Of a stretch of DNA of 64,000 bases, positions 16,835-18,466 are shown piece after piece. The notes beneath the pieces are model-generated. The model did no database searches. It saw only the letters and a program-made list of their open reading frames with translations, and was not told the origin of the DNA. Source of the stretch: Escherichia phage vB_EcoM_112; the sequence record NC_024125.2. The stretch is one strand, 5' to 3'. Position 1 is the stretch's first letter. Every line of letters starts with the position of its first letter. The translations under genes were made by a program, and so were the position numbers.

Positions 16835-17614
16835 TTAATTAAAAATATATACTTCATCAGTTCCATTTTTTTCTTTGGAATGATATATGTTAAAGACGTA
16901 TTTTTTATTAAGATGCTTAACATTATATTTTTTAGACCATTCTTTAAGAAGAGTGTTTTCCTTTCCGTGGTGCTCTAAAACATTCGACAGCCCAAATTTT
17001 ATTCCTCTGTCATTTAAAGAATCTAAAAGATTTAAAAGGTCTTTTTCTTCTTCTTCTGACCAAAATTTATTATAATCAGCAACTGTTATAAGATACGGAG
17101 GGTCCACATATACAAAATCGCCGTCTAGAATTTTGACATCTTTAAAATGCAATGAACTAAAAATTATTTTATCACAATTTTGTTTAAAGTGATTAAAGCG
17201 TTTTTCACTATTTTTGTTTATAGTTCTTTTTCCAAACGGAGTAGTAAAATTTCCTTTATCGTTTATACGAATCATATTACTAAATCCGTGAAAATGAAGA
17301 ACATAAAGTAAAAGAGGATCTCTAGTTTTATTGTAATCTTCACGTAATTTCAAAAACTCTTCTTTTGATGTTTTTGATAGCTTGTATTGCTTTATTACTT
17401 TTAATACGTCATCCCATGATACATTAATAAGACGCTTATACATTTCAATAATTGGTTCTTGAATATCATTGGCCAATACAGGACCATTGACGTTCAAAGA
17501 CACTGATAAACCTCCACAAAATAAATCCACGAATCTGTCATATTTTGGAAAGTGAGGCTTAAGTTCAGGTAATAATGACTGTTTATTACCTGTATACGCG
17601 ATAGCTCCTAGCAT
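16835..17614 (-). CDS. dam: DNA adenine methyltransferase Dam, 259 aa
   Basis: DPPY catalytic motif and FCGG SAM-binding motif; length. Confidence 0.9.
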
Positions 17615-18174
17615 TATATTCTCTCATTTATTGCAGCAAAAAATGAATTATACAATTCTTCATCATATGTATTTGATAGTAATACTAACACGTTTTGTGA
17701 TTTAGCATATTCATTAAACCTTGCTTGGATGGTTGGATTATCAGTAAATGATTCTCTTTTTGTCCATTTATTACGTGGATAATATCCGCATGGCAAAAAA
17801 TCTAATATCATCAATGACACAGGGTTTTCAGTTTTTGTGTATTCTTTTAATTTCTCTTTATCTTCTAAATATATTCCAACCGAATCAATAGCTGTACCTC
17901 CACCAACTTGGTGTTTAATTTCAATTATATGCTTTTTACCGTTGCGAGAAATAACAATATCAAATCTTCTAGTACGCTTCTTAGTTATAAAATTAGAGCA
18001 AAACAAATTATTTGATTTTTCAGTATCATCAATTAAAACCATTTTTTCTTGATAACTAACTGAACAATCAGTGAAATATTCTTTTACTTTATTAAGTATG
18101 AAATTTTCAACTACGGCAGATATTTTATATGAATCTCCATTTAAAGCCATTTCATGCACAATTTTATTAATCAT
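17614..18174 (-). CDS. hypothetical protein with PD-(D/E)xK nuclease-like motif, 186 aa, coupled to dam
   Basis: FDIVIS...HIIEIKHQ (D-x12-E-x-K); stop overlaps dam ATG (TAATG); GAGGA RBS; own early promoter. Confidence 0.6.
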
Positions 18175-18199
18175 TATATCATCCTCAGCAATTTATTTT

Positions 18200-18229
18200 A
18201 TAATACCATAACAAGCTGAGAAAGTAAAC
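18200..18229 (-). promoter_or_regulatory. T4-type early promoter (GTTTAC-N18-TATTAT)
   Basis: Plus gtaaac 18224-18229, ataata 18200-18205. Confidence 0.5.
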
Positions 18230-18265
18230 AATTTATGATAAATATTAATTTAAAGGAGGATATAT

Positions 18266-18466
18266 ATGGTACAAAAATTAATGGCACTTGTTAATGCCAT
18301 AAAAGGTAATAAAAAGCGTATAGCTTTTACTATTTCTGCTATGGTAGGAATTTTACTCTGGAACTTTATTTTAACACCTGTTGCAATTGCACATGGTGTT
18401 AATATTCCAGTAGTTACTCTTGATACATTCGTAGATTTAGCATTTGCTTTAGTTGGGTTAATTTAA
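18266..18466 (+). CDS. small hydrophobic (two predicted TM segments) protein, 66 aa, on the opposite strand
   Basis: Strong RBS AAGGAGG 7 nt before ATG 18266; only plus-strand ORF in an intergenic gap; stop overlaps gene 61 stop. Confidence 0.45.
   Translation: MVQKLMALVNAIKGNKKRIAFTISAMVGILLWNFILTPVAIAHGVNIPVVTLDTFVDLAFALVGLI

Follow-up and report, generated by a model that had tools for sequence, protein, structure and literature searches.

The window analysed here is a stretch of 64,000 nucleotides from Escherichia phage vB_EcoM_112 (NC_024125.2), within which the gene 56–dam–gene 61 segment is that of a T2-like Tequatrovirus: from 17400 to 18700 it is 97–98.5% identical to PhiZZ30, Sf24/25, T2, PE37, JB75 and many others. 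Its minus-strand genes run in the order gene 61, a 186-amino-acid (aa) open reading frame (ORF), dam and gene 56, with a 66-aa ORF on the plus strand (Table 1), and the ratios of nonsynonymous to synonymous substitution rates (dN/dS) of both these ORFs, 0.05–0.35 for the longer and ~0.1–0.4 for the shorter, mark them as more than chance. We find that the 186-aa protein (100% identical to its PE37 counterpart) is modelled with the fold of a restriction enzyme and that its gene is inseparable from dam, whose product is 98.8% identical to T4 Dam, a combination that points, on balance, to a compact restriction–modification (R–M)-like cassette carried by a lytic phage. The 66-aa ORF (the small ORF) is an independent gene with a far wider distribution.

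Table 1. Features of the gene 56–gene 61 segment (positions in the window)
Feature	Position	Strand	Basis or remark
Nuclease-like ORF, 186 aa, PHROG 8706	17614..18174	-	ATG ORF; putative catalytic E23, D72, E85, K87
dam, D12-class N6-adenine DNA methyltransferase	16835..17614	-	Pfam MethyltransfD12, E 6.5e-51
TAATG stop/start overlap of nuclease gene and dam	17612..17616	-	sequence reading
Predicted early-type sigma-70 promoter (GTTTACT, 17 nt, TG-n-TATTAT)	18200..18228	-	promoter scan
Hairpin and T-run, probable intrinsic terminator of gene 61 transcript	18281..18300	-	terminator scan
Small membrane-protein gene, 66 aa, PHROG 2024	18266..18466	+	ORF; tblastn; dN/dS; hydropathy
GATAAATA, T4-type late-promoter-like element 5′ of small ORF	18239..18246	+	putative function
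Gene 61, DNA primase; core flank, upstream edge of variable locus	18463..19491	-	ORF and homologous-record annotation
Gene 56	16256-16771/16789	-	

The stop codon of the 186-aa ORF (TAA, 17616–17614) and the start codon of dam (ATG, 17614–17612) have base 17614 in common, forming the TAATG overlap that the original prediction, made from the sequence alone, had described. The expression signals it had proposed are also in place: a ribosome-binding site, GAGGA, lies 7–8 nt 5′ of the ATG, and a GTTTACT–17–TATTAT site with a TG element, a putative match to the early consensus, would as an early promoter drive a nuclease–dam operon; the same site is a predicted early promoter in the annotation of fPS-65 and a promoter in that of JB75. 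Just ahead of it, a minus-strand hairpin (RNA folding energy −8.9 kcal/mol, z −2.5), annotated as a terminator in fPS-65, probably ends the gene 61 transcript.

Within the 186-aa protein the motif FDIVIS…IIEIKHQ supplies D72-x12-E85-x-K87, the arrangement from which a PD-(D/E)xK nuclease had been guessed. A confident AlphaFold2 (AF2) model built with eight homologues (predicted local distance difference test score, pLDDT, 83.9; predicted template modelling score, pTM, 0.81) has the alpha-beta-beta-beta-alpha-beta core of that superfamily, with D72 in the strand spanning residues 66–77 and E85 and K87 in the next, adjacent strand, residues 80–88. Across an alignment of 11 homologues, 29–64% identical, the invariant positions are E23, D72, E85, K87, H88, Q89 and G93–S98. 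Type II restriction enzymes dominate the Foldseek matches to the model, MunI having the top TM-score (0.54–0.57), and the single-sequence Pfam matches, all of them below threshold, are likewise all restriction nucleases: DpnII (E 0.0096), BanI and HSDR_N. Structure prediction thus bears out the guess, and by its modelled fold the protein appears to be a restriction-enzyme-like PD-(D/E)xK nuclease with presumptive cleavage activity. Nei–Gojobori dN/dS of 0.04–0.05 between close pairs and 0.18–0.37 between distant pairs, together with the invariant motif, indicate that selection has maintained the gene for its protein product, putative active site included.

The family to which this protein belongs is very small. 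An exhaustive profile search of 1.84 billion representatives returned 12 matches, the three weakest of which (P0016, P0017 and P0010) cover short stretches and were not used; word-indexed searches and a diverse alignment (A4) added no further members. All were seen in Tevenvirinae or in contigs with T-even-type gene content. In PHROGs the protein falls in family 8706, of unknown function; a search of viral folds in BFVD found the orthologue in phage MX01 and otherwise only weak, generic nuclease matches; HMMER searches of PDB sequences, with the single protein and with the family profile, gave nothing useful; and an NCBIfam scan gave noise only. In one metagenomic protein of 117 aa (P0008) the last 80 residues of the nuclease follow an epimerase-like N-terminus (PF01370); this protein, in all probability a chimera of assembly or gene calling, was left out of the alignments.

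Wherever the neighbourhood of the nuclease gene could be read, dam follows. In 10 of 10 contexts examined a D12 Dam-type methylase gene lies directly 3′ of it, abutting or overlapping: the junction is a 1-nt overlap in MX01, as in this window, and a 0-nt gap in contig L009, and the overlap extends to 4 nt in L013, 7 nt in the Klebsiella phages, 20 nt in L008 and 35 nt in L007. The pair occupies three different genomic positions, between genes 61 and 56 in Tequatrovirus, in Dhakavirus MX01 and in several metagenomic T-even contigs (L009 and L030 among them), between denB and ndd in Klebsiella Jiaodavirus phages, and directly 5′ of a rIIA homologue in L008. Across these lineages the identities of nuclease and Dam fall together (64/76, 57/72, 44/62 and 35–38/54–57%), the nuclease diverging the faster. 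With their overlap, their three positions and their parallel divergence, nuclease and dam behave as one mobile module in which, as in R–M systems, an endonuclease gene adjoins a methyltransferase gene and is inherited with it. The methyltransferase link proposed in the original prediction is thus genuine and conserved, and of the alternatives listed there it speaks for the restriction-like one.

Another of those alternatives was homing. An endonuclease of the homing type, free-standing and with a PD-(D/E)xK scaffold, which would cut a specific site in phage genomes without the insert and spread by recombinational repair, with Dam as its cargo or its neighbour, would fit a gene that is present or absent between the core genes 61 and 56 in the manner of the seg and mob genes of T-even phages, that has reached three genome positions and that, in T4, has the homing endonuclease gene segF right beside its locus. 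Yet this nuclease gene is never found apart from a dam gene that can itself stand alone, the two overlap or abut in every lineage while diverging in step, and Pfam searches of the protein found no GIY-YIG, HNH or LAGLIDADG signal. We consider homing unlikely.

The distribution of the module within a phage collection adds an asymmetry to this linkage. A primase gene of at least 95% identity is present in 501 records, dam in 179–182, the body of the nuclease gene in 146 and an intact dam–nuclease junction again in 146, from which it follows that the nuclease never occurs without dam; no such record was found among the collection's ~500 Tequatroviruses. By contrast, dam without the nuclease is found in ~35 records, T4 included; ~320 have neither gene. 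Dam-positive Tequatrovirus records, ~180 in all, therefore include 146 in which dam is not solitary and is preceded by a coupled nuclease gene. Loss of the endonuclease with retention of the methylase, and never the reverse, is the pattern expected for a toxin–antidote R–M pair, whose endonuclease is not tolerated without its methylase; what we observe is a correlation only. Patchy among Tequatroviruses and absent from T4, the 186-aa ORF is accessory content, as had been surmised.

At least two independent deletions underlie the dam-only state. In T4 a deletion of ~540 bp has removed the promoter and spared only the last ~20 codons of the nuclease gene. In KarlGJung (L005, 1729–1914) a separate internal deletion has taken out the catalytic core; what is left 5′ of dam is the promoter and the start, with a C-terminal remnant of 61 aa. 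Laboratory T2 (NC_054931; L017, 1501–2046) lacks one T of a T-run close to the 3′ end of the gene (17625–17640 in the window), and the resulting frameshift yields a 181-aa product that ends in NSFLLQ, with its stop codon 13 nt before the dam ATG and thus uncoupled from it. The T4 remnant has the same ending as this product, indicating that the T4 deletion arose on a T2-like allele; judged from these sequences, the solitary dam of T4 is a derived, deletion state. In 1988 Miner and Hattman reportedly described, in J Bacteriol, an insertion of 536 bp that T2 has 5′ to dam when compared with T4, said to have resembled nothing then known and to have been given no function. The GenBank record of the 1988 T2 dam study annotates dam only, and the searchable literature gave us nothing relevant on a dam-linked nuclease of T2 or other T-even phages.

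Repeated loss could also mean that the protein does not cut at all, and is either a restriction-enzyme relic that binds DNA and regulates the expression or activity of dam, or a gene in decay. Two or more deletions, the 3′ frameshift in laboratory T2 and a length of 186 aa against the 288 aa of DpnII would suit such a relic. Against this, the four putative catalytic residues stay invariant down to ~30% identity, dN/dS is well below 1 in every comparison, and MunI is complete at ~200 residues, so that small size is no argument; we regard a non-cutting protein as quite improbable.

As to what the nuclease might recognize, its pairing with Dam makes GATC the obvious candidate, and several hints lead from the protein towards the GATC-specific enzyme DpnII. 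For 5 of the 11 nuclease-family members DpnII ranks first among Pfam families; the best score, 22.5 bits (P0009), and that of the window protein, 15.7 bits, both lie below the gathering threshold of 23 bits, as do those of all members. The PADLOC model REase_II matches the nuclease (E 5e-6), and an hhalign comparison of alignment A4 with an alignment of 18 PF04556 database proteins (A5) gave a weak, if suggestive, match (probability 26.7%, E 7e-4) in which E23, D72 and E85 fall on the invariant DpnII residues E152, D201 and E214, with K87 opposite N216. A DpnII sequence served as a search probe only and formed no part of A5; PF04556 is present in all 120 matches listed, of 8000 retrieved, one of which has the NCBI name DpnII. 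The nuclease aligns to DpnII positions ~125–226 only, without the N-terminal ~125 residues that belong to the full-length DpnII architecture (~280–290 aa). On account of this missing region and the sub-threshold scores we do not assign the nuclease to the DpnII family, and with so weak a relationship GATC specificity is a guess resting mainly on the partner methylase. A route to a DpnII-type enzyme through plasmid relatives of T-even Dam was also abandoned, the neighbours of those relatives being AlwI-family enzymes, FokI-type IIS enzymes, methylases or nothing. The closest relatives themselves (~38–43% identity; L022, L023, L025, L026 and L027) are methylases of AlwI-family and FokI-type IIS systems of Firmicutes; the same search gave, in E. 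coli records, matches of only ~28% identity, which likely represent host Dam.

Methylation at GATC might instead be read by a nuclease with no part in restriction, such as a MutH-like nickase acting on hemimethylated sites for phage mismatch repair or recombination-dependent replication, or an extra degrader of cytosine-containing DNA alongside EndoII and EndoIV. The PD-(D/E)xK fold and the tight linkage to Dam would accommodate this, as would the position of the Klebsiella phage pair directly after a denB-like endonuclease IV gene and the strong depletion of GATC, which is the most depleted 4-bp palindrome across window positions 1–64000 (72 observed against 206 expected under a second-order Markov estimate, a ratio of 0.35). 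TCGA is second (0.60), most other palindromes lying near 0.8–1.0. However, type II restriction enzymes lead the structural matches, MutH, Vsr and repair nucleases being absent from the top matches of the model; the gene is dispensable and has been repeatedly deleted; and its asymmetric loss, which fits a toxin and its antidote, would be unexpected for a repair accessory. A methyl-signal nuclease of this kind seems to us improbable.

We lean instead, with modest confidence, towards the reading that the 186-aa gene is the endonuclease half, and Dam the methyltransferase half, of a compact phage-borne type II R–M-like cassette. Its footing is a fold, a conserved catalytic motif, purifying selection, an obligate linkage to dam and an asymmetric pattern of loss, each of them established. 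In such a cassette one early promoter would give a bicistronic nuclease–dam mRNA, and translation coupled through TAATG would ensure that no nuclease is made in the absence of its antidote. Dam would methylate the phage's own GATC sites, which contain hydroxymethylcytosine (hmC), while the nuclease would cut any DNA in the infected cell that lacks Dam methylation, probably as a homodimer that belongs to the MunI/EcoRI structural class and uses E23, D72, E85 and K87 with Mg2+. Nuclease activity, GATC specificity, methylation sensitivity and the identity of the target are what we infer here; the most plausible targets would be co-infecting dam-less relatives, which make up about two-thirds of the Tequatroviruses, and other undermethylated phage or plasmid DNA. 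T4 and ~35 other records would then represent phages in which the nuclease has been deleted and dam kept as an orphan methylase.

Several points weigh against this R–M reading. All recorded hosts are Dam-positive enterobacteria, whose DNA would therefore be protected; the host-DNA-targeting role raised in the original prediction is accordingly unlikely should GATC methylation block the enzyme, and we rejected degradation of the DNA of such hosts as a function, GATC there being already methylated. The glucosyl-hmC DNA of T-even phages resists most restriction enzymes, which makes it unclear what substrate could be cut. The two-thirds of Tequatroviruses that lack the cassette thrive, so any competitive effect is not overwhelming, and in laboratory T2, with its 3′ frameshift, the nuclease may be decaying. 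The DpnII relationship is weak, with hhalign at 27%, sub-threshold Pfam scores and no N-terminal part. Adjacency to dam within a single virus subfamily could in part reflect common descent, though not as the whole explanation, given three different genomic positions. Finally, the searchable literature yielded no biochemical or genetic data on the nuclease protein.

A narrower and bolder version of the R–M reading would have lytic T-even phages use the nuclease–Dam cassette against each other. Host Dam is not known to methylate the hmC-containing DNA of T-even phages, and in an infected Dam-positive cell the only unmethylated GATC would thus be that of co-infecting dam-less relatives. By cutting these genomes the nuclease would either exclude them or promote the copying of the cassette into them, and dam-only phages such as T4 would be immune, 'antidote-only' variants. 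We put this forward tentatively, as a possibility more apt to be wrong than right.

The second ORF singled out at the locus has a separate history. All the sequence features attributed to it are present: AAGGAGG lies 7 nt and GATAAATA ~24 nt 5′ of its ATG, and its stop codon (TAA, 18464–18466) overlaps that of gene 61 (18465–18463, minus strand) inside TTTAAA. A tblastn search found the small ORF in 696 phage records, always overlapping or abutting the 3′ end of the primase gene on the opposite strand, with identities of 90–98% in Tequatrovirus and 36–56% in Mosigvirus, Gaprivervirus, Dhakavirus and Kanagawavirus. It exists as two paralogous types, of which Gaprivervirus has both in tandem and other genera one or the other; in VR26 and MN01 (Gaprivervirus; L019 and L020) the tandem paralogues lie between genes 56 and 61, at 1495–1692 and 1701–1901. 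Moderately diverged Tequatrovirus copies have dN/dS of 0.09–0.17, and within each type the proportion of nonsynonymous differences (pN) is 0.2–0.35, the synonymous proportion (pS) being saturated; the small ORF is thus a real gene under purifying selection.

The guess that this gene has a late promoter gains from comparison across genera, in which an ATAAATA core is kept at the same distance from the start codon, followed by a strong Shine–Dalgarno sequence; the core takes the canonical form TATAAATA in MX01 and Q7622. Late, gp55-type expression is thus supported at the level of sequence. The putative gene 61 terminator hairpin overlaps codons 6–12 of the small ORF, placing that stretch under dual constraint, and convergent transcription across the small ORF is likely early in infection. 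Two transmembrane helices had been proposed for the 66-aa protein; we predict one. Its Kyte–Doolittle 19-residue mean reaches 2.0 over residues 19–43, and a single-sequence AF2 model places a helix at 16–43, long enough to span a membrane, preceded by an N-terminal amphipathic helix and a basic patch, KGNKKR; a C-terminal helix (52–63, 12 residues) is too short for a second span. PHROGs assigns the protein to family 2024, of unknown function. On these predictions the small ORF is an independent late gene that is widely conserved and encodes a membrane protein with a single span; from its class one may guess at an envelope role in the late phase of infection, in the timing of lysis or the control of superinfection.

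The original prediction knew of no equivalent gene pair at this position in T4. For the 186-aa ORF this holds, since it is deleted there, but the small ORF is intact in the T4 dam–61 intergenic region, with 65 of its 66 residues identical (L003, 1828–2028, in MT984581; by offset ~17738–17938 in NC_000866). Neither NC_000866 nor MT984581 annotates it, and the searchable literature held nothing relevant on a small gene annotated in this interval of T4.

Their adjacency on opposite strands in this window had suggested that the nuclease and the small membrane protein might form a functional pair, a toxin–immunity or exclusion module. This is already contradicted by the distribution data: being present in 696 records, most of them without dam and nuclease, against ~150 for the nuclease, the small ORF is no dedicated toxin, immunity protein or partner of the latter. 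It is kept, with the same promoter and ribosome-binding site, in slur02, WFK, VR26 and Q7622, which lack both nuclease and dam; in Klebsiella Jiaodavirus and in L008 the nuclease–dam pair lies elsewhere in the genome, whereas the small ORF is always at the gene 61 end; and the two genes apparently belong to different temporal classes, one with an early and the other with a late promoter. We find such a pairing scarcely credible.

On the far side of gene 56, window positions 15300–16250 hold a Soc-like ORF and several small ORFs; segF was not found there, a further T2-versus-T4 difference beside the locus.

Work on T2 and T4 Dam goes back to the 1960s, and we know of no clear benefit to the phage that has been established for the methylase. 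In most dam-positive relatives, T2 included, dam lies downstream of a restriction-enzyme-like gene as its partner, coupled to it in translation, and the textbook solitary dam of T4 is a deletion derivative, which changes the reading of T-even dam. If the nuclease is active, lytic T-even phages bear a working type II R–M module, with a new and very small restriction-enzyme family that possibly acts on hypermodified DNA and is a candidate weapon in phage–phage competition. Were that competition its true role, it would give T-even dam its first functional rationale and make for a marker exclusion based on R–M, not on homing endonucleases. Many of the 146 carriers are therapeutic candidates, which gives the question relevance for phage therapy. 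Separately, a conserved late gene of 66 codons for a membrane protein, located between dam and gene 61, is missing from the reference annotation of T4.

Among known systems, the nuclease is structurally closest to type IIP enzymes of the MunI/EcoRI class (PD-(D/E)xK, alpha class), to which HMMER searches of PDB sequences detected no sequence similarity. Those enzymes are bacterial and cut at CAATTG and GAATTC, whereas the nuclease gene comes from a lytic phage and its partner methylase points to a GATC-type site. By partner and by weak sequence signal it is closest to the DpnII/MboI family (PF04556), which is GATC-specific and associated with the Dam-like DpnM, much as the nuclease is paired with a D12 Dam-family methylase; DpnII, however, has ExN where the nuclease has ExK. 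T4 Dam and the orphan Dams of other phages are solitary, unlike the Dam of the window with its coupled nuclease 5′. The T-even homing genes (seg, GIY-YIG; mob, HNH) resemble the nuclease in being optional between conserved genes, patchy among close relatives and found in the segF region, but they differ from it in fold, and the nuclease has an obligate methylase link and asymmetric loss that set it apart. By biology its nearest likeness is the chlorovirus system CviAI: Table 1 of PMC7248222 presents the CviAI genes of PBCV-1 (M.CviAI A581R with A579L) as a virus-encoded, early-expressed R–M pair whose methylase makes G(m6A)TC. CviAI belongs to a giant virus of eukaryotes, whose host DNA is unmethylated at GATC and open to attack, whereas the bacterial hosts of the nuclease already methylate GATC, so that its target must be something other than host DNA. 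The nuclease is best described as a very small new restriction-enzyme-like family, belonging to a known kind of system, type II R–M, in an unusual carrier.

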